The position numbers and the translations under genes are program-made. Shown piece by piece: positions 11,724-62,137 of a DNA stretch of 64,000 nt. The stretch lies in sequence record NC_054934.1; one strand, given 5' to 3'. Position 1 is the first letter of the stretch; each line of letters starts with the position of its first letter. This DNA comes from Escherichia phage teqskov. Under the pieces are notes generated by a model. It was not told where the DNA came from. It made no database searches and saw only the letters and a list, made by a program, of their open reading frames with translations.

Positions 11724-13142
11724 ATGGCTTTTACAGTTGATATAACTCCTAAAACACCTACTGGAGTTATAGATCAGACTCAGCAGTTTACTGCTACACC
11801 CAGTGGTCAAACTGGAGATGGACCTATTACATATGCTTGGACTGTAGATGATGTTCCACAAGATGGAGCTGAAGCAACTTTTAATTATGTATTAAAAGGA
11901 CCTGCCGGTCAAAAGACTATTAAAGTAGTTGCAACAAACCAAGTCCCAGATACTGATGCTGAAACAGCAGAAGCTACTACAACTATCACAGTTCAAAATA
12001 AGACACAAACGACCACCTTAGCTGTAACTCCTAATAGCCCTGACGCTGGAGTAATCGGAACAGCTATTGAATTTACTGCCGCTTTAGCTTCGCAGCCATC
12101 GGGCGCAAACGCTACTTATCAATGGTATGTAGATGATTCTCCTGTGGGCGAAGCAACTAACGCTACGTTCAATTACACTCCTGCCGAAAGCGGGGTAAAA
12201 AGAATTAAGTGTGTGGCTCAAGTAACTGCGACAGATTATGATGCACTAAGCGTTACTTCTAATGAAGTATCACTGACTGTTAATAAAAAGGAGCAGACAA
12301 CTACTTTGGCAGTAACTCCTGATAGTCCTCCAGCAGGAGTAATCGGAACCCCAGTTCAATTTACTGCTGCCTTAGCTTCTCAACCAGTTGGAGCGTCTGC
12401 TACTTATCAGTGGTATGTAGATGATTCACAAGTTGGTGGAGAAACTAACTCTACATTTAGCTATACTCCAACTACAAGTGGAGTAAAAAGAATTAAATGC
12501 GTAGCCCAAGTAACCGCGGCAGATTATGATGCAAAGGAAGTTACTTCTAATGAAGTATCATTAACGGTTAATAAGAAGACAATGAATCCACAGGTTACAT
12601 TGACTCCTCCTTCTATTAACGTTCAGCAAGATGCTTCGGCTACATTTACCGCTAATGTCACTGATGCTCCAGAAGAAGCGCAAATTGAGTATTCATGGAA
12701 GAAAGATTCTTCTCCTGTAGAAGGGTCAACTAATGTATATACCGTTGATACCTCATCTATTGGAAGTCAAACTATTGAAGTTACTGCAACTGTTACTGCT
12801 ACTGATTATGATAGCAAAACTATTACAGCAGAAGGTCAAGTTCAGGTAACTGATAAAGTTGCTCCAGAACCAGAAGGTGAATTACCTTATGTTCATCCTC
12901 TTCCACATCGTAGCTCAGCTTACATCTGGTGTGGTTGGTGGGTTATGGATGAAATCCAAAAAATGACTGAAGAAGGTAAAGATTGGAAAACTGAAGATCC
13001 AGATAGTAAATACTACCTGCATCGTTACACTCTTCAGAAGATGATGAAAGACTATCCAGAAGTTGATGTCCAAGAATCGCGTAATGGATACATCATTCAC
13101 AAAACTGCTTTAGAAACTGGTATCATCTATACCTATCCATAA
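11724..13142 (+). CDS. hoc: Hoc outer capsid decoration protein with an extra Ig-like domain
   Basis: 472 aa; N-terminal Ig-like repeats and C-terminal capsid-binding region (HPLPHRSSAYIWCGWW) recognised; one internal domain is tandemly duplicated. Confidence 0.85.
   Translation: MAFTVDITPKTPTGVIDQTQQFTATPSGQTGDGPITYAWTVDDVPQDGAEATFNYVLKGPAGQKTIKVVATNQVPDTDAETAEATTTITVQNKTQTTTLAVTPNSPDAGVIGTAIEFTAALASQPSGANATYQWYVDDSPVGEATNATFNYTPAESGVKRIKCVAQVTATDYDALSVTSNEVSLTVNKKEQTTTLAVTPDSPPAGVIGTPVQFTAALASQPVGASATYQWYVDDSQVGGETNSTFSYTPTTSGVKRIKCVAQVTAADYDAKEVTSNEVSLTVNKKTMNPQVTLTPPSINVQQDASATFTANVTDAPEEAQIEYSWKKDSSPVEGSTNVYTVDTSSIGSQTIEVTATVTATDYDSKTITAEGQVQVTDKVAPEPEGELPYVHPLPHRSSAYIWCGWWVMDEIQKMTEEGKDWKTEDPDSKYYLHRYTLQKMMKDYPEVDVQESRNGYIIHKTALETGIIYTYP
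12003..12575 (+). repeat. tandem duplication (two units of about 285 bp) inside hoc encoding two consecutive Ig-like domains
   Basis: units TQTTTLAVTPNSPDAGVIG...SLTVNKK (12003-12290) and EQTTTLAVTPDSPPAGVIG...SLTVNKK (12291-12575); diverged at nucleotide level, protein near-identical. Confidence 0.8.
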
Positions 13143-16122: not shown

Positions 16123-17688
16123 TTAGATACCTTTAACATATACACGGCGGAAGTAAGCGTTCTTACCAAGGCTGTTCAGGATAGAAGGCATACCACTCTG
16201 AATGCGAGAAGCCGGAGCCTGAGCAGCGGATTCTGCAAATGGGTTGATACCGATACCGTAACGAGTTTTGAATCCCATTACTGGTTGGAAGTTCTTCGGA
16301 TCGGAACCACGCAGCGGAGTCAGAGCTACATATGGAGCATAGTAAATACCAGCATCCATTTCGTTCGGACCTTTATAACCTACAGTGAAATAATCCTGTT
16401 TAGCATACTGGTCGATATATACGCGGTATTTACCACCCAGAACACCAGCAAATACTGACTTGGTAGTATCAGTGTTAAAGCCGGTAGCCAGACCTTGTGC
16501 AGCATAAGAAATGCCAGTATCAACTGAAGCCAGAACGTTAACTACGTTACGGGAAGCGATAATGAAGTTACCTTCACCACGACCGGTCTGACGAGCAATT
16601 TCAACTGCTTCTTTGTCAATCTGGAACAACAGAGCTTTAAAGGATTCACCTGCCCAGCGAGCACCACGAATATCGATTGGGTCCTGGAAGTCAAATACAC
16701 CAGCTTTAGAACCCGGAGTCAGGGTCATACCAGATTTACCAACCTGTGCAGAGTAGTTAATCCAATCAACAACTTCACGGTTGATTTCCAGCATAATTTC
16801 TGTAGCCAGAATACCAGACAGTTCAGCATCAGCATCCATACCGTGAACAGCGCGGAGGTCTTGTGCTAATTCAATAGAGTAAGCAGCTTTCAGCTGACGA
16901 GATTTAGCTTCGATAACTTGCTTATCGATACGGAAGCCCATTTCATTCCATGGGTTATCGGTAGAACCATTGAAACCTTCCTGGAGTTCAGCGATAGAAG
17001 TAGCCATACCTTCAGCGATTTCTACCAGTGTACCAGCTTCCATTTGTTTCTTAATTTCAGCATCTAATTTAGCAGCATCAGTCGCGCCAGCATCGATTGT
17101 TACTTGAACAGAAGCTTGCAGATATACAGTACCAGTTTCCTGGAAGAAGTGAGTATAGATATCACCTACTGTGGTTTGTGTGCTAGCAGCCAGAGCTGGG
17201 AATTTCTTAGCAGCACCCTGACCAGAGAACATTGCATCTGGACCATACATTGGGTGGAATGCTTCTTTAGCGCCGGAAGCGATTGGGTCTTTACCATATA
17301 CCGCACGAAGTGCGAATACCTGACCAGTCGGGCTGTTCATCGGCTGAACACCACAAATATCGAAAGCAATCAGGTTAGGAATAGCACGACGTACCATACC
17401 CATAACAGCTGGGCCAATCTGAGTTACTGCGCCAGAAGTCTGACCTGCAGCGATGTTGGTAGCATTGTAACCGTGGTCACCACCGATTTCAGCTTCTGTT
17501 AAGAAAGAACCAAATGCCTGAGCAATTTTTTCGTCTTTATATTCTGGAGCTGTCTGGAAATCTTTTTCCTGGTTTTCAAAGATTTTAGCGATAATCGCTT
17601 GTTTGCTATTAGCAATTTCCGGTAAACCTTCACCTTCCAGTAATGGCTTCCATTTGTTCAAAAGTTCAGCTTTAGTTTTGATAGTCAT
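16123..17688 (-). CDS. 23: major capsid protein gp23
   Basis: 521 aa as T4 gp23; sequence recognised. Confidence 0.95.
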   Translation of the reverse strand: MTIKTKAELLNKWKPLLEGEGLPEIANSKQAIIAKIFENQEKDFQTAPEYKDEKIAQAFGSFLTEAEIGGDHGYNATNIAAGQTSGAVTQIGPAVMGMVRRAIPNLIAFDICGVQPMNSPTGQVFALRAVYGKDPIASGAKEAFHPMYGPDAMFSGQGAAKKFPALAASTQTTVGDIYTHFFQETGTVYLQASVQVTIDAGATDAAKLDAEIKKQMEAGTLVEIAEGMATSIAELQEGFNGSTDNPWNEMGFRIDKQVIEAKSRQLKAAYSIELAQDLRAVHGMDADAELSGILATEIMLEINREVVDWINYSAQVGKSGMTLTPGSKAGVFDFQDPIDIRGARWAGESFKALLFQIDKEAVEIARQTGRGEGNFIIASRNVVNVLASVDTGISYAAQGLATGFNTDTTKSVFAGVLGGKYRVYIDQYAKQDYFTVGYKGPNEMDAGIYYAPYVALTPLRGSDPKNFQPVMGFKTRYGIGINPFAESAAQAPASRIQSGMPSILNSLGKNAYFRRVYVKGI

Positions 17689-50295: not shown

Positions 50296-50368
50296 TGGGA
50301 ATTAGCCAAGTTGGTAAGGCATAGCACTTTGACTGCTAGATGCAAAGGTTCGAGTCCTTTATTCCCAG
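50296..50368 (+). tRNA. tRNA-Gln (anticodon TTG)
   Basis: cloverleaf folded by hand: acceptor TGGGAAT/ATTCCCA, anticodon stem TAGCA/TGCTA, loop CTTTGAC, T-loop TTCGAGT. Confidence 0.85.
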
Positions 50369-50369
50369 C

Positions 50370-50456
50370 GCGAGAATGGTCAAATTGGTAAAGGCACAGC
50401 ACTTAAAATGCTGCGGAATGATTTCCTTGTGGGTTCGAGTCCCACTTCTCGCACCA
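50370..50456 (+). tRNA. tRNA-Leu (anticodon TAA), long variable arm, encoded CCA
   Basis: acceptor GCGAGAA/TTCTCGC; anticodon stem CAGCA/TGCTG, loop CTTAAAA. Confidence 0.85.
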
Positions 50457-50461
50457 AATTT

Positions 50462-50536
<75 letters not shown>

Positions 50537-50545
50537 TTTAATTTA

Positions 50546-50619
50546 CTCCGTGTAGCTCAGTTTGGTAGAGCGTCTGCTTTGGGAGCAGAATGTCGTAGGT
50601 TCAAATCCTGCCGCGGAGA
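50546..50619 (+). tRNA. tRNA-Pro (anticodon TGG)
   Basis: acceptor CTCCGTG/CGCGGAG (one G-T pair); anticodon stem TCTGC/GCAGA, loop TTTGGGA; T-loop TTCAAAT. Confidence 0.85.
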
Positions 50620-50621
50620 CT

Positions 50622-50711
50622 GGAGGCGTGGCAGAGTGGTTTAATGCACCGGTCTTGAAAACCGGCAGTCGCTCCGGCGACTCATAGGTTCAAATCCTAT
50701 CGCCTCCGCCA
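50622..50711 (+). tRNA. tRNA-Ser (anticodon TGA), long variable arm, encoded CCA
   Basis: acceptor GGAGGCG/CGCCTCC; anticodon stem CCGGT/ACCGG, loop CTTGAAA. Confidence 0.85.
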
Positions 50712-50716
50712 GTTTT

Positions 50717-50792
50717 GCTGATTTAGCTCAGTAGGTAGAGCAGTTGACTGTTAATCAATTGGTCCATGGTTCGAATCCATGCATGTCCGCCA
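50717..50792 (+). tRNA. aberrant tRNA-like gene (Asn-type anticodon GTT) with non-pairing acceptor stem; probable chimeric or pseudo-tRNA
   Basis: D-arm, anticodon arm (GTTGA-CTGTTAA-TCAAT) and T-arm (CATGG-TTCGAAT-CCATG) fold, but 5' acceptor GCTGATT cannot pair with 3' CATGTCC (3 of 7 pairs); ends in GCCA. Confidence 0.5.
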
Positions 50793-50918
50793 AACTTGTG
50801 ACAGTTGTCACATTAATATCTACTTGACGCGATTATAGGGGTTGAACTGATCACACTTCTCTTAATTTCGTGTGAAGACATCTTGATTGTTGGAGTAGGT
50901 ATTGCTGTGAACTAATTA

Positions 50919-50995
50919 CGGGGTGTAACTCAATTGTATAGAGTAGCGGTCCTCTAAACCGCAGGTTAAAGGTTAGAATCCTTTCACCCTGACCA
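50919..50995 (+). tRNA. tRNA-Arg (anticodon TCT), encoded CCA
   Basis: acceptor CGGGGTG/CACCCTG (one G-T pair); anticodon stem GCGGT/ACCGC, loop CCTCTAA; T-loop TTAGAAT. Confidence 0.85.
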
Positions 50996-51589: not shown

Positions 51590-51859
51590 CCTGAGTAAGG
51601 AATTGCGTTAATAATCTTTGCGTTTATTGATGCCCTCTTACATCACAGCAGAAACGGCGCACCGAATTATCGATTCGAGGAAATATCTTTGCCGTAAGCC
51701 GAGTAGCGTTTTTGACGGAACGTTCGGATATGGTCGAGATATGGCCTTTTAAAAATATTGAGTAGCGTCAACTACTTAATAACCGGGTTCAAGTCCCGGC
51801 GTTTCGTACAAACACTTGCCTTAGCAGGTGGAACCCCGACAAGGTTGCCGCAAGGCTTA
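51590..51859 (+). ncRNA. structured non-coding region, possible small stable RNA(s) as at the distal end of the T4 tRNA cluster
   Basis: no ORF; tRNA-like T-arm hairpin CCGGG-TTCAAGT-CCCGG and several inverted repeats; ends at a rho-independent terminator. Confidence 0.25.
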
Positions 51860-51886
51860 GCCCCGACCGAAAGGTTGGGGCTTTTT
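51860..51886 (+). terminator. rho-independent terminator (CCCCGACC-GAAA-GGTTGGGG then CTTTTT)
   Basis: 8-bp GC-rich stem, GAAA loop, T-run. Confidence 0.7.
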
Positions 51887-55639: not shown

Positions 55640-56076
55640 AAACATTATCAGCTGGTATTATCTTTATGACAGAAGATAAAGATTTATTTATGGGACGAGT
55701 TACTGGTTCTCGTAAGCCTGGAATGATGGCACATCGCTGGGATATTCCAAAGGGGCGTGTAGAAAATTCTGATTTAAGCGCATTAGATGCAGCACGAAGA
55801 GAATGCTCAGAAGAGACTGGTTTTAACAATTATAATCCAGACCTTCTAGAAGACCTAGGTGTATTTAAATATTCTAGTAATAAAGACTTACAGTTATTTT
55901 ATTATACGATTCCAGTAGAGCATGAGATGTTCAGAAATTGCCATTGCGAGTCTTATTTTGAAAATAAAGATGGTGTTATGATTCCAGAGATGGATGCTTT
56001 TGCCCTTATTCCTCGTACTCAGTGGCAATATGTGATGGGTCCTTCACTTTACCGAATAATGAACAGCCTCTTTTAA
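55621..56076 (+). CDS. nudE: Nudix hydrolase NudE
   Basis: Nudix box G-x5-E-x7-R-E-C-S-E-E-T-G (KGRVENSDLSALDAARRECSEETGF); 151 aa; alternative start at 55636 is translationally coupled to the upstream gene. Confidence 0.85.
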   Translation: MQEIKMKTLSAGIIFMTEDKDLFMGRVTGSRKPGMMAHRWDIPKGRVENSDLSALDAARRECSEETGFNNYNPDLLEDLGVFKYSSNKDLQLFYYTIPVEHEMFRNCHCESYFENKDGVMIPEMDAFALIPRTQWQYVMGPSLYRIMNSLF

Positions 56077-56607
<531 letters not shown>

Positions 56608-56666
56608 AGTTGTTTACTTTCTCCTAGAATTGTGATAGTATATTCACAGTTACTTGGAGGGATAAA

Positions 56667-57083
56667 ATGACTCGTATTAATTTGACTTTAGTATCTGAAC
56701 TTGCTGATCAACATTTAATCGCAGAATACCGTGAATTGCCACGTGTTTTTGGTATAGTTCGTAAGCATGTGGCAAACGGTAAGCGCGTTAAAGATTTTAA
56801 AATATCTTCCGAGTTTATTTTAGGTTCTGGTCATGTTACGTTCTTTTACGATAAGTTAGAATTTTTGCGAAAGCGTCAATTAGACATTATAACGGAATGC
56901 TTAAAACGAGGGTTCAGTATAAAAGATACTGAAGTTCCTGACATCAGCGATATTCCAGTAGAATGGAAAAATGATTATAATCCATGCAAATCAGCTATTA
57001 AATTGAGTCAACAACGACTTGATGAAAAAATTTTAATGAAACCACATTGGTATAAGTATTACGGTAAAAATATTTACATTTAA
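56667..57083 (+). CDS. denV: endonuclease V (pyrimidine-dimer DNA glycosylase) DenV
   Basis: 138 aa; [17 protein letters not shown]... recognised. Confidence 0.9.
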
Positions 57084-57092
57084 AGGAAACAT

Positions 57093-57566
57093 ATGAAAAC
57101 ATATCAAGAATTTATCACTGAAGCAGCTATTAATTCTCAAATTATTGCTGAATCTTTTACCGATCTTTTGAAATTTAAAAAAGGTCAAAAAATCACTGCT
57201 GTATTGGATGATGGTACAGAAGTTGAGATGGATGTACAGGGATATAATTATGCAGTAGATGGAAAACTGTATAATAAATCTCATGCTAAATTTGATTCAT
57301 TTGACGACTTTGTTAATACAGTTGAAGATGAAAAAACTCGTAGATCCATTGCAACTGGTGATGCTAAGGTTCTTATGGCACATGGTCATGAACGCATTCG
57401 CGCTAAACAGAATAAAATGGGTGAAGATAATTTTGCATTAGTTGGTTATCAATCTGGTAAACAAACTTATGGCTATCAACGTACTGCTACCATGTATAAT
57501 AAAAATGGTAAAATCGCTTTCGTGAATAGTAAAGGTTCTATTCAGTACGTTAAATCGTTCAAATAA
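57093..57566 (+). CDS. CTS-bearing internal protein (ipII/ipIII locus), 157 aa
   Basis: N-terminus MKTYQEFITEAAINSQIIAE; position after denV corresponds to T4 ipII/ipIII. Confidence 0.6.
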   Translation: MKTYQEFITEAAINSQIIAESFTDLLKFKKGQKITAVLDDGTEVEMDVQGYNYAVDGKLYNKSHAKFDSFDDFVNTVEDEKTRRSIATGDAKVLMAHGHERIRAKQNKMGEDNFALVGYQSGKQTYGYQRTATMYNKNGKIAFVNSKGSIQYVKSFK

Positions 57567-57707
57567 TATGGGAACAACCTGGACCTCATGATTCTATGAG
57601 GGATTCCCGCCAACCTGTAATAAGGTCGAGCCTGAGTGCGGTAATGGGTAAATACAGAAATGGACAATTCATGCGCCACGGAATGGCCCAAATTTAGAGA
57701 GAATAAA

Positions 57708-58247
57708 ATGAGAACATTTTTAACTGGTCCTTATCTATCCCTGATGAATGCTTTTACACACCATTCTGACGCTAGAGTAGAAGAAATTTGTAAAAACGAA
57801 TATATCCCGCCATTTGAAGAATTACTTAAACAGTACTGCACACTTCGACTAGATGGTGGACGTCAATCTGGTAAATCAACTGCAGTAACTAATTTTGCCG
57901 CTAATTGGTTGTATGACGGTGGAACAGTTATTGTTCTTTCTAATACTTCAGCTTACGCTAAAATTTCTGCAAATAACATTAAAAAGGAATTTTCGCGTTA
58001 TTCTAATGATGATATACGTTTTCGTTTATTTACTGATTCTGTACGCAGTTTTATTGGTAATAAAGGAAGTAAGTTCAGAGGTTTATCGCTTTCGCGAATT
58101 TTGTATATAATTGACGAGCCTGTCAAATCTCCTGATATGGATAAGATTTATAGTGTCCATATTGACACTGTACACTGCTGCTGTAATATTAAATGTTGTA
58201 TTGGTGGTATTACTCGTCCACAGTTTTTCGTAATCGGAATGCAATGA
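57708..58247 (+). CDS. small P-loop NTPase (Walker A GGRQSGKST, Walker B ILYIIDEP)
   Basis: ATG at 57708 with GAGAGAA upstream (the ORF track extends to an ATG at 57660); Walker motifs read directly. Confidence 0.55.
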   Translation: MRTFLTGPYLSLMNAFTHHSDARVEEICKNEYIPPFEELLKQYCTLRLDGGRQSGKSTAVTNFAANWLYDGGTVIVLSNTSAYAKISANNIKKEFSRYSNDDIRFRLFTDSVRSFIGNKGSKFRGLSLSRILYIIDEPVKSPDMDKIYSVHIDTVHCCCNIKCCIGGITRPQFFVIGMQ

Positions 58248-58573
58248 TGACAGACACTCAGCTTTTCGAATATCTTTATTTTTCGCCAAAAACTATTAAA
58301 AATAAATTGGTGAATCATTTTGAAATTTTGGCAAATAATAACACTTTGAGCGAATTTTATCCCAAGCAATACAAATTACAAAAAGGTATATTCAAAGGAT
58401 GCAGAGTTTTGTGCACTGCTCCTAATGCACGGCTAATGAATAAAATTCCATATTTTACCATGGAATTTATTGATGGACCTTTTAAAGGATTAATTACCCA
58501 AAGTTTAATGGCATATGATTCTGAGCCATTTTTAATTAAAGAACAATCTTGGATAAATTTATTTTCTAATTGA
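58244..58573 (+). CDS. hypothetical protein (109 aa) translationally coupled to the P-loop NTPase
   Basis: ATGATGA start/stop overlap at 58244-58250. Confidence 0.5.
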
Positions 58574-58580
58574 GGTTTAT

Positions 58581-58943
58581 ATGAAAGCATATCAAATTCT
58601 TGAAGGCACACATAAAGGCACTATTTATTTTGAAGATGGTATTCAAGCACGAATTATTGTCTCTAAAACCTTTAAAGAGGACTCTTTTGTAGACCCAGAA
58701 ATTTTCTACGGTTTGCATGCCCGTGAAATTGAAATTGAGCCACAGCCTACAGTTAAAATTGAAGGTGGTCAACACCTGAACGTTAACGTTCTGCGTCGTG
58801 AAACTCTGGAAGATGCAGTTAAGCATCCGGAAAAATATCCGCAGCTGACCATCCGTGTATCCGGTTATGCAGTTCGCTTTAACTCTCTGACTCCGGAACA
58901 GCAGCGCGACGTTATCGCTCGTACCTTCACCGAGAGTTTGTAA
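58581..58943 (+). CDS. autonomous glycyl-radical cofactor (GrcA/YfiD-like)
   Basis: C-terminal [29 protein letters not shown] contains the glycyl-radical motif RVSGY; 3' half has host-like GC and codon usage. Confidence 0.8.
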
Positions 58944-59164
58944 TGGCAAAGATAATTATTGAAGGTTCTAAAGATGTGCTAAATGCTTTCGCCGAGTGGT
59001 TTAGTAATTCAGGCGAACAGCAATTTAACGAAGCGTGGAATATGGGTGATATTGATGGAATTTATCCTACTACAGAAATTTCTGTTCAGGGATATGGCAT
59101 TCATGAACCTATTCGTTTAGTTGAATACGATTTATGTACTGGTGAGGAAGTCAAATATGATTGA
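58943..59164 (+). CDS. hypothetical protein (73 aa)
   Basis: ATG overlapping previous stop. Confidence 0.5.
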   Translation: MAKIIIEGSKDVLNAFAEWFSNSGEQQFNEAWNMGDIDGIYPTTEISVQGYGIHEPIRLVEYDLCTGEEVKYD

Positions 59165-59453
59165 AGATATTAAAGGTTATAAGCCACATACCGACGAAAA
59201 AATCGGTAAAGTAAATGCTATTAAAGACGCTGAAGTTCGTTTAGGACTTATCTTTGATGCTTTATACGATGAATTTTGGGAAGCATTTGATAGCTGTGAA
59301 GATGATGAACTCGCGAAGAATTACGCCGAAAGCCTCGATCAGTTAACTATTGCTAAACGAAACTCAAAGAAGCCAGTATGTGGGCTTGTCGTGCAGTGTT
59401 CCAACCAGAGGAAAAATACTAATGGCTCAATTAAGTGCAGGGTTTGGTTATGA
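59157..59453 (+). CDS. hypothetical protein (about 98 aa)
   Basis: ATG at 59157 overlapping previous stop (ATGA); ORF-track start 59121. Confidence 0.45.
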
Positions 59454-59700
59454 GTATTATACTGCCCCTCGTCGTGTATCTGTCGCTCCTAAGAAAATTC
59501 AAAGTCTTGATGACTTCCAGGAAGTAGTCCGTAAAGCTTTCCAGGACTATGCACGTTATCTTAAAGAAGATTCACAGGACTGTCTCGAAGAAGATGAAAT
59601 TGCTTACTATGAGCAGCGTCTTGAACAGCTTAAAAACTTACATGAGGTTCGTGCAGAAGTTTCAAAGTCTATGAATAAATTGATTAGATTTAAAGAATAA
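59422..59700 (+). CDS. hypothetical protein (about 92 aa)
   Basis: ATG at 59422 with GAGG upstream; overlaps 3' end of previous ORF in another frame. Confidence 0.45.
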
Positions 59701-59702
59701 CT

Positions 59703-59732
59703 GTTTACTTTTCCTCTTGACTGTGGTATAAT
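59703..59732 (+). promoter_or_regulatory. T4-type early promoter (GTTTAC-N18-TATAAT) for regB
   Basis: -35 GTTTAC at 59703, -10 TATAAT at 59727, ATG at 59760. Confidence 0.7.
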
Positions 59733-59759
59733 TTTTCTATCAGTTAAGAGGAGAATAAC

Positions 59760-60221
59760 ATGACTATCAATACAGAAGTTTTTATCCGTCGAAATAAGCT
59801 TCGTCGTCACTTTGAGTCGGAGTTTCGTCAAATTAACAATGAGATTCGTGAGGCATCAAAAGCAGCAGGAGTCTCATCGTTTCATCTAAAATATTCTCAA
59901 CATCTTCTTGATCGTGCAATTCAACGGGAGATTGATGAGACATATGTTTTTGAATTATTCCATAAAATAAAAGACCATGTTTTAGAAGTTAATGAATTCC
60001 TGAGTATGCCTCCGCGTCCTGACATTGACGAGGATTTTATTGATGGGGTTGAATATCGTCCTGGACGTTTAGAAATCACAGATGGAAATCTTTGGCTTGG
60101 ATTTACGGTTTGTAAGCCTAATGAGAAGTTCAAAAACCCGTCACTTCAATGCAGGATGGCAATTATCAACAGTCGTCGTTTACCAGGAAAGGCTTCTAAA
60201 GCAGTAATTAAAACTCAATGA
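59760..60221 (+). CDS. regB: RegB endoribonuclease
   Basis: 153 aa; MTINTEVFIRRNKLRRHFESEF recognised; own early promoter. Confidence 0.8.
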   Translation: MTINTEVFIRRNKLRRHFESEFRQINNEIREASKAAGVSSFHLKYSQHLLDRAIQREIDETYVFELFHKIKDHVLEVNEFLSMPPRPDIDEDFIDGVEYRPGRLEITDGNLWLGFTVCKPNEKFKNPSLQCRMAIINSRRLPGKASKAVIKTQ

Positions 60222-60228
60222 GGTAAGC

Positions 60229-60774
60229 ATGAGAAAAGCACTACTCGCTGGTCTATTGGCCATTTCAATGATGGCACATAGCTCCGAGCATACTTTCAGT
60301 AATGTCCAACTCGATAACATGCGTTACGCGTATCAATTCGGGGAACAATTTTCTAAGGATGGAAAATATAAAACACACAAAAATATCCACAAGAGCGGAT
60401 TAGGTCATATAATGGCTGCTATTTTATGGCAAGAAAGCTCTGGCGGAGTTAATTTAAAATCTAAACCAAAGCATCACGCCTACGGAATGTTCCAAAATTA
60501 TTTGCCTACTATGCGAGCAAGAGTTAAGGAACTTGGTTATAATATGACCGATGCTGAAATAAAAAGAATGTTGAATAAACGGTCCAATTCAGCTTCCTGG
60601 GCGTACATTGAACTTTCTTATTGGTTAAATATACATAAGGGCGATATAAGAAAAGCAATATCCTCTTATAATTCGGGATGGAATGTTAAAGCAGGTTCTA
60701 AATATGCTTCTGAAGTCCTAGAAAAGGCTAATTACCTTAAAAATAATAAACTTTTGGAAATAGTAAATGACTAA
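60229..60774 (+). CDS. secreted lytic-transglycosylase-like protein (vs.1 position)
   Basis: N-terminal signal peptide; ILWQESSGG resembles the SLT catalytic-Glu motif. Confidence 0.5.
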   Translation: MRKALLAGLLAISMMAHSSEHTFSNVQLDNMRYAYQFGEQFSKDGKYKTHKNIHKSGLGHIMAAILWQESSGGVNLKSKPKHHAYGMFQNYLPTMRARVKELGYNMTDAEIKRMLNKRSNSASWAYIELSYWLNIHKGDIRKAISSYNSGWNVKAGSKYASEVLEKANYLKNNKLLEIVND

Positions 60775-61108
60775 AATTTTGGTTTTATGTATAGGATTAA
60801 TTTCATTTTCTGCGTTAGCAGATACATCATATACTGAAATTAGAGAGTATGTAAACCGTACTGCCGCGGATTATTGTGGGAAAAATAAAGCATGCCAAGC
60901 TGAATTTGCGCAGAAATTAATATATGCATATAAAGACGGAGAAAGAGATAAATCAAGCAGATACAAAAATGATACATTGTTAAAACGATATGCTAAAAAG
61001 TGGAATACCTTAGAATGTTCAGTTGCGGAGGAGAAAGATAAAGCCGCTTGTCATTCAATGGTTGACCGTTTAGTAGATTCTTATAATCGAGGATTGAGTA
61101 CTAGATGA
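60767..61108 (+). CDS. small secreted Cys-containing protein (vs position)
   Basis: signal peptide MTKILVLCIGLISFSALA; synteny between regB and tk. Confidence 0.45.
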   Translation: MTKILVLCIGLISFSALADTSYTEIREYVNRTAADYCGKNKACQAEFAQKLIYAYKDGERDKSSRYKNDTLLKRYAKKWNTLECSVAEEKDKAACHSMVDRLVDSYNRGLSTR

Positions 61109-61584
61109 TTGTAAAATATATCAAGGGCGATATTGTCGCCCTATTTCTTCAAGGTAATATTATTGCGCATGGGTGCAATTGCTTCCACACAATGGACTCT
61201 GGCGTAGCAGGTCAATTAGCAAGAGCCTATCCTAAAATTTTGGAAATAGATAAAACCACTACCGAGTACGGTTCTCGTGATAAATTAGGCGATATGTCTA
61301 TTGTTTTTAAACATAATCCTACAGGATTTGGTATATGCTATAACCTGTATACGCAATATGAACCGGGTCCTAATCTTGATTATGGTGCTTTAGTAAACTG
61401 CATGATAGAATTAAATCTACAGGCAGAAACCCTTTTGTTTAAACCAGTAATTTACATTCCACGCATAGGTTGCGGTATTGCTGGCGGCGATTGGGATAAG
61501 GTTTCTAAATTAATCGACATGTTTACTCCTGATATTGATTTAATAGTGGTGGATTATGAAAGTACATTACCCGCATCCGTTTGA
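61105..61584 (+). CDS. macro-domain-like protein (putative ADP-ribose binding/processing)
   Basis: KGDIV...IIAHGCNC...MDSGVAGQLA and IPRIGCGIAGGDW resemble macro-domain motifs (GDIT..VNAAN..GGGV.. and P-x-IS-TG-x-x-G). Confidence 0.5.
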   Translation: MIVKYIKGDIVALFLQGNIIAHGCNCFHTMDSGVAGQLARAYPKILEIDKTTTEYGSRDKLGDMSIVFKHNPTGFGICYNLYTQYEPGPNLDYGALVNCMIELNLQAETLLFKPVIYIPRIGCGIAGGDWDKVSKLIDMFTPDIDLIVVDYESTLPASV

Positions 61585-61768
61585 TCCTAAAAACAAAGTG
61601 GAAATTATTCGTCAATGGGAACGCATTTGCCGTACTAAATGTCCAATTAATAGTCCGCATGATGTAGATAAAGACTATATTGGAACATTCGTTGAATATA
61701 CCTTTATTGATAAGAAAGGTCGTAAACAGCACGTAGAAGAATATTGCTTAAAGGTTACATGGTTATGA
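61556..61768 (+). CDS. hypothetical protein (70 aa)
   Basis: ORF overlapping end of previous gene. Confidence 0.4.
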   Translation: MKVHYPHPFDPKNKVEIIRQWERICRTKCPINSPHDVDKDYIGTFVEYTFIDKKGRKQHVEEYCLKVTWL

Positions 61769-61971
61769 GCCAAACAAGTATTCTTAAAAATGCCCACTGC
61801 GAAAAGTGTGAATGGCCGGTTGTTTTTGCTTTATGTAATGATGAAATGGCTTGTGATTTCGATTATTGGTGCTATTGTTCTAATAAAGGATGCATCAATC
61901 ATAAAGGTGAAGGATTTTATTCAGGATTTTATCCTTATCCTGATTTCGTTAAAGAAGGTAAACCAAAATGA
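61765..61971 (+). CDS. small Cys-rich protein (about 68 aa; C-x-x-C plus additional Cys/His)
   Basis: ATG at 61765 overlapping previous stop; ORF-track start is TTG at 61744. Confidence 0.4.
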   Translation: MSQTSILKNAHCEKCEWPVVFALCNDEMACDFDYWCYCSNKGCINHKGEGFYSGFYPYPDFVKEGKPK

Positions 61972-62137
61972 ATAGTTTTGAGTTACAATATGAAGTGTTA
62001 CGTGAGCTTGATAATTTAATTGAACTCGCTGTCAATAAAGGTTTTGCCATTGGAATCGGTCAAAAAGATACTGGTCATTTAACCATGGAAATATTTAAGC
62101 AAAAGCGAATTATTTTAAAACTCCTGGAAATTAATAT

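Follow-up and report, generated by a model that had tools for sequence, protein, structure and literature searches.

Introduction

Y06I, the product of bacteriophage T4 gene vs.6, and YfiD (GrcA) of Escherichia coli are the two validated spare parts for pyruvate formate-lyase (PFL) (PMC8683613). By the account given there of the work of Wagner et al. (2001), Y06I is given a glycyl radical by PFL activase and makes oxygen-cleaved PFL active again. YfiD residues 61–127 copy PFL residues 693–759, while its residues 1–60 are disordered and aid binding to the cleaved enzyme, cPFL (PMC8683613). Here we describe vs.6 in a 64,000-nucleotide stretch of the genome of Escherichia phage teqskov (NC_054934.1; this whole stretch is called the window below), where an internal tract of 169 nucleotides is identical to the grcA gene of E. 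coli.

Recombination within genes shared by phages and their hosts has been described for psbA and psbD of cyanophages (Zeidner 2005; Sullivan 2006, PMC1484495). Like vs.6, these are host-derived metabolic genes in T4-like phages that have a patchy G+C content and have exchanged segments with the host, and the psbA exchange is the closest analog of the vs.6 conversion reported here. Unlike psbA and psbD, vs.6 carries one domain-sized block at a fixed position that is 100% identical to a single host species, and the version of another host is found in another phage genus. Moreover, the carriers are classical coliphages containing hydroxymethylcytosine, and only the host-to-phage direction of transfer is seen.

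A second comparison is provided by the T5-like phages (Demerecviridae), whose GrcA-like proteins resemble that of vs.6 in standing alone, in their length of ~122 amino acids, in their conserved C-terminal domain and in a related N-terminal half. These proteins are, however, only ~53% identical to the vs.6 protein, and the 3′ halves of their genes are 77–79% identical to any host tested and therefore show no recent conversion. The data presented below make it very probable that vs.6 is an old grcA homolog whose glycyl-radical domain has been overwritten repeatedly by the host copy through gene conversion.

Results

A host-identical tract within vs.6

The window is a segment of a Tequatrovirus (T4-like) genome, and its positions 56000–62000 are ~98% identical to many Escherichia T4-type phages. 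The vs.6 gene occupies positions 58581–58943 of the plus strand, including the stop codon, and encodes a GrcA-type autonomous glycyl-radical cofactor of 120 amino acids, as judged from its open reading frame (ORF), Pfam, PHROG, the Protein Data Bank (PDB) and T4 gene order. An initial annotation, made from the DNA letters, had called this ORF, quoted the same C-terminal sequence and stated that its last 60 residues match GrcA/YfiD and contain the glycyl-radical motif. The match is in fact complete, as phage residues 61–120 are identical to E. coli GrcA residues 68–127 at 60 of 60 positions. The motif itself, RVSGYAV (residues 92–98, positions 58854–58874), is evident from the translation and from alignment with GrcA/YfiD. 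Its radical glycine is Gly95, encoded by the GGT codon at 58863–58865 and equivalent to Gly102 of GrcA.

The similarity extends to the DNA. A BLASTN comparison, which had been proposed with the initial annotation, finds a grcA match in each of the 5,426 complete E. coli genomes, spanning gene positions 179–363 with a best identity of 97.3%. Pairwise alignment reveals 169 consecutive identical bases at positions 58759–58927, which encode the structured glycyl-radical domain (phage residues 61–115 plus parts of the flanking codons). The five mismatches to E. coli grcA that lie 3′ of this tract are all synonymous, and all fall in the last five codons.

The composition of the gene changes at the same place. 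The G+C content of the tract is 49.7%, compared with 35.4% for the 5′ part of the gene (58581–58758) and a mean of 36.1% for the window, and only 0.57% of all 169-nucleotide segments of the window reach the value of the tract, some of them accounted for by a tRNA cluster. Similarly, G+C content at third codon positions is 0.46 in codons 60–120 versus 0.24 in codons 1–59. Codon choice shifts from CTT/TTG, CGA/CGT and CCA/CCT in the 5′ half to CTG for five of six leucines, CGT or CGC for six of six arginines and CCG for three of three prolines in the 3′ half. Thus, the tract is a segment of host composition within a gene of phage composition. The GC-rich, host-like segment proposed initially is real, although it starts at 58759 rather than near 58740. 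Neither an absence of nucleotide similarity to grcA nor a uniform composition across the gene, the two observations named at the outset as telling against a host origin, was found.

When the entire 64 kb were compared with E. coli by megablast, the matches obtained were the vs.6 tract and a weaker echo of it in pflB, and no match fell in the first 40 kb of the window. Five other stretches contain 169-nucleotide segments as GC-rich as the tract (1226–1403, 12027–12196, 16140–16373, 17157–17499 and 51697–51885). None of the five has a megablast match in E. coli, and they are therefore not host patches of the kind seen in vs.6.

Donor and direction of transfer

Among the grcA genes of 81 species, that of E. 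coli is most similar to the 3′ segment of vs.6 (97.3%). Identities are 96.2% for a representative of Escherichia sp., 90% for Citrobacter, ~85% for Klebsiella and 81.6% for Salmonella. The related gene pflB was considered as a donor and rejected, since its identity is only 80.6%, which leaves grcA as the source. In codons 61–115, the window and E. coli show no differences at 42 synonymous sites (proportion of differing synonymous sites, pS, 0.000). By comparison, the window and Klebsiella pneumoniae show 17 differences in these codons, and the corresponding estimate of synonymous substitutions per site (dS) of 0.57 equals the value between E. coli and K. pneumoniae themselves. The suggestion that the 3′ segment is host DNA therefore holds, with E. 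coli as the species.

A domain under strong purifying selection that also uses host-preferred codons might come to resemble its host counterpart with no transfer of DNA. The domain is indeed extremely constrained. Over codons 61–115, the Slopekvirus phages Miro and KMI9 have no nonsynonymous differences from K. pneumoniae GrcA, and phage CYPEBC003 has none from E. coli GrcA. The same three phages, however, combine these identical proteins with pS values of 0.66–0.76, which demonstrates that selection alone does not yield identity of DNA. The window, in turn, matches at 169 of 169 bases, with none of 42 synonymous sites differing, and does so specifically with the species E. coli. These synonymous-site data contradict convergence, which we find scarcely credible.

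Transfer in the opposite direction, in which a phage copy would have converted grcA of E. coli and K. pneumoniae, has a precedent in the two-way exchange reported for cyanophage psbA (PMC1484495). Several observations make it extremely unlikely for vs.6. The composition and codons of the tract are those of the host, and not those of a phage with 36% G+C. In addition, dS between E. coli and K. pneumoniae is 0.57 in the tract codons, in line with 0.75 in the hosts' own 5′ halves, and host divergence within the tract tracks species relationships, with the Escherichia sp. representative differing by two bases. Finally, the phage-type end of vs.6 is absent from grcA in all 5,426 E. coli genomes, among which the best identity is the 97.3% given above. 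We conclude that the donor of the tract is E. coli grcA and that transfer was from host to phage.

Replacement within an older phage gene

The initial annotation interpreted the gene as a captured host segment fused to a phage-derived N-terminus. In such a one-off event, a grcA fragment would have been joined illegitimately to an unrelated phage frame to create a new chimeric gene. The sharp break in composition and identity at 58759 is what such a junction would look like, and the N-terminal 59 amino acids alone match no Pfam or NCBIfam model. The N-terminal half is nevertheless homologous to that of GrcA, and this contradicts the capture of a fragment by an unrelated frame. Codon-aligned nucleotide identity between the 5′ half and E. 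coli grcA is 46.1%, with 21 of 60 third positions (35%) and 17 of 60 amino acids (28%) identical. A comparison of 11 phage with 10 bacterial GrcA sequences by hhalign aligns the N-terminal halves over their full length (probability 96.6%, E 5.9e-10, 60 columns). Furthermore, intermediate N-terminal halves from other phages, such as that encoded by contig L100, bridge the phage and bacterial sequences.

The gene is also older than its host-identical tract would suggest if the whole had been formed by fusion. In the comparison of T4-like genomes by Nolan et al. (PMC1524935), vs.6 belongs to the small set of ORFs that is conserved throughout, and we find a full-length vs.6 of the same architecture in every straboviral lineage sampled. 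These lineages include Slopekvirus (Miro and KMI9), CYPEBC003, CC31-like phages (L088–L092) and RB43/RB16-like phages (L096–L097), all with the 120-amino-acid form and with 3′ halves that are 77–85% identical to any host and synonymously saturated. In the C-terminal domains of the Slopekvirus, CC31-like and RB43-like phages, pS is 0.57–0.79, and nonsynonymous differences from the nearer host type number 0–9.

Lastly, the host-identical stretch is internal to vs.6, because the last five codons, like the overlap with the downstream gene vs.5, are of phage type. This phage-type tail (58928–58943, from sequence and alignment) consists of the last base of TTC followed by ACC GAG AGT TTG TAA. The AT-rich part of the gene on the other side of the tract (58581–58758) encodes the diverged N-terminal half, which by G+C content, alignments and hhalign is the counterpart of the YfiD half that is disordered and binds cPFL (residues 1–60). 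The structured half of YfiD is the part covered by the patch. Homologous N-terminal halves, saturated lineages with a full-length vs.6 and an internal tract together argue for replacement rather than fusion, that is, for a gene-conversion patch in a pre-existing phage homolog of grcA. We consider the capture of a fragment very unlikely. The observation that prompted this analysis is confirmed, and its earlier interpretation is supported in part: host DNA was acquired, but not by fusion.

Recurrence among phages of different hosts

A reciprocal survey of grcA 3′ ends was carried out over 50,697 phage records. The E. coli 3′ end is matched at 95% or better by 637 records, with Escherichia, Shigella, Yersinia and Tequatrovirus names, and these carriers belong to Tequatrovirus and Mosigvirus. 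Klebsiella phages match it at 86–88%. Conversely, the K. pneumoniae 3′ end is matched at 95–99% by at least 106 phage records and at 90–95% by 28; among the records listed in these two ranges all are Klebsiella phages, and the E. coli phages match at 86–88%.

Misassembly of host reads into phage genomes could in principle create such patterns, and host genes do occur in viral collections. The IMG/VR entries L110 and L150–L160 were rejected as phage vs.6 because they hold true host genes, namely a full Yersinia-type grcA with the N-terminus MITGIQ and 3′ ends of pflB, and represent host or prophage-flank sequence filed as viral. The probability of an artefact is nonetheless negligible, as over 600 phage genomes that were sequenced independently, and the T4 reference as well, show the same in-frame mosaic with phage-type sequence to its left and right.

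Comparison of the window with the Mosigvirus RB69 gives an indication of the age of the tract. The two are 98.8% identical in the tract, versus 90.4% in the 5′ part of vs.6, 75% in the last 16 nucleotides and 63–84% in the flanking genes, and pS is 0.024 in the tract compared with 0.284 in the 5′ half. Because the tract is so much more similar than its surroundings, it must be younger than the split between Tequatrovirus and Mosigvirus.

The at least 106 Klebsiella-phage records with a K. pneumoniae-type tract belong to Jiaodavirus, and the tract sits at the same position of vs.6. In the Jiaodavirus sequences KP185, AM_K2, Nispero, 15882-6-2 and IMG/VR contig L107, it is 94.8–96.6% identical to metagenome-derived chromosomal copies of grcA, one of which is 100% identical to K. 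pneumoniae records over 1,181 nucleotides. In the interior of the L107 tract, from its left edge up to the last codons, there is a single mismatch to K. pneumoniae (CTG to CTA). Its codons 61–115 contain three synonymous differences, corresponding to a dS of 0.07 to K. pneumoniae versus 0.62 to E. coli. L107 is a 167-kb Jiaodavirus-like contig in which the 5′ half of vs.6 is frameshifted, through either a sequencing error or decay to a pseudogene; despite this frameshift, its 3′ tract resembles K. pneumoniae grcA more closely than any other tract does. A second Klebsiella-clade allele (L172) has three linked single-nucleotide polymorphisms (SNPs) that recur in Nispero, two of them also in AM_K2. 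The comparable right part of Klebsiella aerogenes grcA, for which a single record with an indel was available, differs from the SNPs of Nispero. We had considered vB_Kpn_AM_K2 (174 kb) as a converted Slopekvirus, but it is classified as Jiaodavirus, and no converted Slopekvirus was found among the phages compared.

Variation is also evident within the E. coli group. At three SNPs, the tracts of E. coli phages have the same base at the same site as host alleles from metagenomes. Among 13 Tequatroviruses that differ by only 1–6 bases in the 180-nucleotide 5′ part, host-type sequence ends at no fewer than six different places on the right. The last six variable sites of vs.6 (58926–58943; sequences L251, L254–L261 and L162) form a staircase that runs from a fully phage-type end, ACA TTC ACC GAG AGT TTG, to one that is almost fully E. 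coli-type. At its extremes, MLF4 is phage-type at all six sites and OES_C-2 has one phage-type site left. Mosaic right ends are present as well, such that all four combinations are seen at two adjacent sites. T4 itself carries the same host-identical tract, but its vs.6 is host-type up to GAA with only AGT TTG phage-type, whereas the window is phage-type from TTC on. The codon GAG, which overlaps a GAGAG resembling a Shine-Dalgarno (SD) sequence before the vs.5 start codon, is kept in all of the 13 except T4. Mosigvirus tails are uniform (GAG AGT CTA). The left edge, by comparison, stays within one codon of the same place in every converted lineage, because homology between host and phage ends there.

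These data bear on the possibility that each host group experienced a single conversion, followed by vertical descent and recombination among phages only, so that transfer from the host is rare and not ongoing. Differences in endpoints and SNPs would then reflect later point mutations or exchanges among phages. The uniform left boundary and the uniform tail of Mosigvirus are compatible with such a history, and Tequatrovirus and Mosigvirus co-infect the same hosts. Even so, at least two donors are needed, E. coli and K. pneumoniae, and the linked SNPs of Nispero come from a different Klebsiella-clade allele. The staircase of right ends with its four combinations, found among phages whose 5′ parts are only 1–6 bases apart, and the three phage SNPs that equal segregating host alleles are further difficulties. 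We regard single conversion as unlikely, and the sequence comparisons instead suggest that replacement of phage by host sequence happened more than once and in a host-specific manner.

Two further groups of sequences extend the survey. Tequatroviruses isolated on Yersinia, Citrobacter and Serratia (PYps14T, phiD1, PYPS2T, PhiZZ23 and PhiZZ30) carry the E. coli-type tract, which may record the natural rather than the isolation host. Viral contigs from human-associated metagenomes (L100–L105, L116 and L118) carry vs.6-like genes whose N-terminal halves are longer and closer to GrcA, and whose 3′ halves are 82–86% identical to grcA of Haemophilus parainfluenzae. They may derive from Pasteurellaceae phages with older host-derived tracts.

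The vs.6 locus and its neighbors

The gene order of the window (e, denV, vs.8, vs.7, vs.6, vs.5, vs.4, regB, vs.1) is that of the T4 annotation, and the placement of vs.6 between vs.7 and vs.5 is also as in RB69. Across 2.9 kb of this region, which runs in T4 from vs.8 through vs.7, vs.6, vs.5, vs.4 and regB to vs.1, the DNA is 96.6% identical to T4. The 120-amino-acid T4 protein differs by one substitution (Arg73 in the window, His73 in T4). The gene is annotated as vs.6 or 'autonomous glycyl radical cofactor GrcA' in T4, RB51, RB69 and AR1. The window gene is therefore the ortholog of T4 vs.6 (Y06I), and the term homologue used for Y06I in the initial annotation was an understatement, although the link itself and the spare-part function ascribed to it were correct (PMC8683613). 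With one residue separating the two proteins, the window protein presumably shares the spare-part role of Y06I.

Protein comparisons yield the same assignment. The Pfam model Gly_radical (PF01228) matches with E 2.8e-18 and 66.8 bits, against a cut-off of 22.2. The profile phrog_1209 covers the protein end to end (residues 1–120 on profile positions 1–121, E 1.2e-62), and the YfiD entry 6owr of the PDB matches with E 8.6e-42. vs.6 stands alone, as is typical of the small GrcA/YfiD cofactors of ~14 kDa: it has its own SD sequence and ATG, the neighboring ORFs are in other frames, and it does not form the C-terminal end of a larger glycyl radical enzyme. E. coli GrcA (YfiD, TIGR04365, PDB 6OWR) likewise stands alone, and its glycyl-radical domain is preceded by an N-terminal half of the disordered type. 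Its C-terminal 60 residues, including RVSGY, are those of vs.6. The two differ in the N-terminal half, where the phage protein is seven residues shorter, and in genetic context: vs.6 resides in an early/middle gene cluster of a lytic phage, and host grcA lies between ung and eamB or srmB.

PHROG 1209 is labeled 'unknown function' in PHROGs, and many GenBank records call vs.6 a 'pyruvate formate-lyase', a 'ribonucleotide reductase subunit' or 'acetyltransferase-related'. The T4 protein was reportedly characterized in 2001, and annotation as 'pyruvate formate-lyase' or 'unknown function' should be avoided.

An SD-like GAGG (58572–58575, plus strand), read from the sequence, lies five nucleotides 5′ of the vs.6 start codon and overlaps the TGA stop of the vs.7-like ORF. 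At the other end, the phage-type tail contains the SD-like GAGAG (58932–58936) for vs.5, and the stop codon of vs.6 overlaps the vs.5 start codon in the sequence TAATG. The vs.5-like gene (58943–59164, plus strand) is supported by its ORF, by PHROG 1986 (E 1.3e-43) and by the T4 and RB69 annotations. It begins where alignment with E. coli ends, at the stop codon of vs.6, and the overlap makes translational coupling of the two genes likely. An antisense ORF of 127 amino acids (58566–58949) was set aside as a by-product of the sense gene. Scans of positions 56500–60300 revealed 14 promoter-like sites versus 14.6 expected and two terminator-like sites versus 2.1 expected, both at chance level.

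Other features of the window lie apart from the gene. A GC-rich stretch at 57550–57700 (45–49% in 100-nucleotide segments), between a DUF7412 gene (57093–57566) and the vs.8-like gene (57660–58247), matches neither Rfam, at gathering score, nor E. coli. The Rfam and tRNA scans found only a T4-type tRNA cluster, distant from vs.6, at 50296–50995, where ARAGORN identifies six tRNAs (Gln, Leu, Gly, Pro, Ser and Arg). A partial Rfam tRNA match at 50724–50781 (model positions 8–63) is absent from the ARAGORN calls and may be a degraded or unusual tRNA.

Discussion

If the protein functions as Y06I does, its role during infection would be as follows. Oxygen would cut host PFL at the radical glycine, and the host activase PflA would charge the phage protein with a fresh glycyl radical. 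In this form, the protein would then dock into the damaged PFL and restore its activity, which would keep fermentative production of acetyl-CoA and formate running in the infected cell. Phage anaerobic ribonucleotide reductase uses formate, and this is a possible link to the rescue of PFL.

The most probable evolutionary course begins with an old phage homolog of an entire bacterial grcA gene, whose glycyl-radical domain would have stayed similar enough to the host copy to be overwritten by chromosomal grcA through homologous recombination during infection, leaving the patch at 58759–58927. The left edge of the patch would mark the end of host–phage homology. At its right edge, a few codons before the stop and near the start of vs.5, two limits would apply, as the gene ends there and selection would act on the ribosome-binding site of vs.5. 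A first patch would raise identity with the host to ~100% and thereby ease further conversion, such that the process could be self-reinforcing. Such dynamics would lead to E. coli-type tracts in E. coli phages, K. pneumoniae-type tracts in Klebsiella phages and variable endpoints in close relatives. The machinery may be recombination of the T4 UvsX type with fragments of host DNA, as the recombination proteins of T4 are known to accept non-phage DNA when it is homologous to phage sequence (PMC3016281).

Several points weigh against this account. The vs.6 protein scores 153.3 bits with the NCBIfam equivalog model TIGR04365 (residues 20–120 on model positions 25–126), which is below the cut-off of 170, whereas E. 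coli GrcA scores 233.9 bits. The shortfall arises because the N-terminal half has diverged, and every other testable defining feature of the GrcA family is present. CYPEBC003, an Enterobacter isolate, encodes E. coli-type residues, from which Enterobacter GrcA differs, and protein-level host matching is therefore not universal. The overlap between phage SNPs and host alleles is only moderately unlikely by chance if third positions alone are considered (rough P ~0.03). The uniform left boundary could also have arisen if each host group had a single event whose product then spread from phage to phage. Recombination itself is inferred from sequence. Host DNA, which contains cytosine, is degraded by T4, and recombination between host and phage should therefore be rare. 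In addition, we found no measured benefit of vs.6 to the phage in the accessible literature.

The gene vs.6 and its biochemistry were already known, and the evolutionary pattern is an unusually clean case of a known phenomenon, intragenic recombination between host and phage. We found no published account of recurrent host-to-phage conversion of vs.6 by grcA, although the older T4 literature was not covered and an earlier notice is possible. The protein itself adds nothing new, and the value of the case lies in the pattern of its DNA.

The saturated lineages illustrate what happens in the absence of visible recent DNA exchange. In Miro, KMI9 and CYPEBC003, a domain that is protein-identical to a host version despite its synonymous divergence indicates very strong constraint at the protein level, and possibly host matching at that level. 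Selection thus holds the vs.6 domain identical in protein to that of the host even when no recent exchange of DNA can be seen.

A more far-reaching proposal is that the domain is kept in lock-step with grcA of the current host by frequent, self-reinforcing conversion, a form of concerted evolution between virus and host. The tract would then represent both an adaptive re-tuning to the local PFL and its activase and a record of the recent natural host. We judge the chances of this proposal to be evenly balanced. The tract suggests itself as a simple marker from which the recent host species of a T4-like phage might be read. The tract also offers a natural and easily assayed reporter for the frequency of recombination between virulent phages and the chromosome, as it is only 169 nucleotides long and could be watermarked at synonymous positions. 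More broadly, in the best-studied family of lytic phages, whose members destroy host DNA and modify their own, recurrent and host-specific replacement by chromosomal sequence appears to have affected a domain-sized block of one gene.

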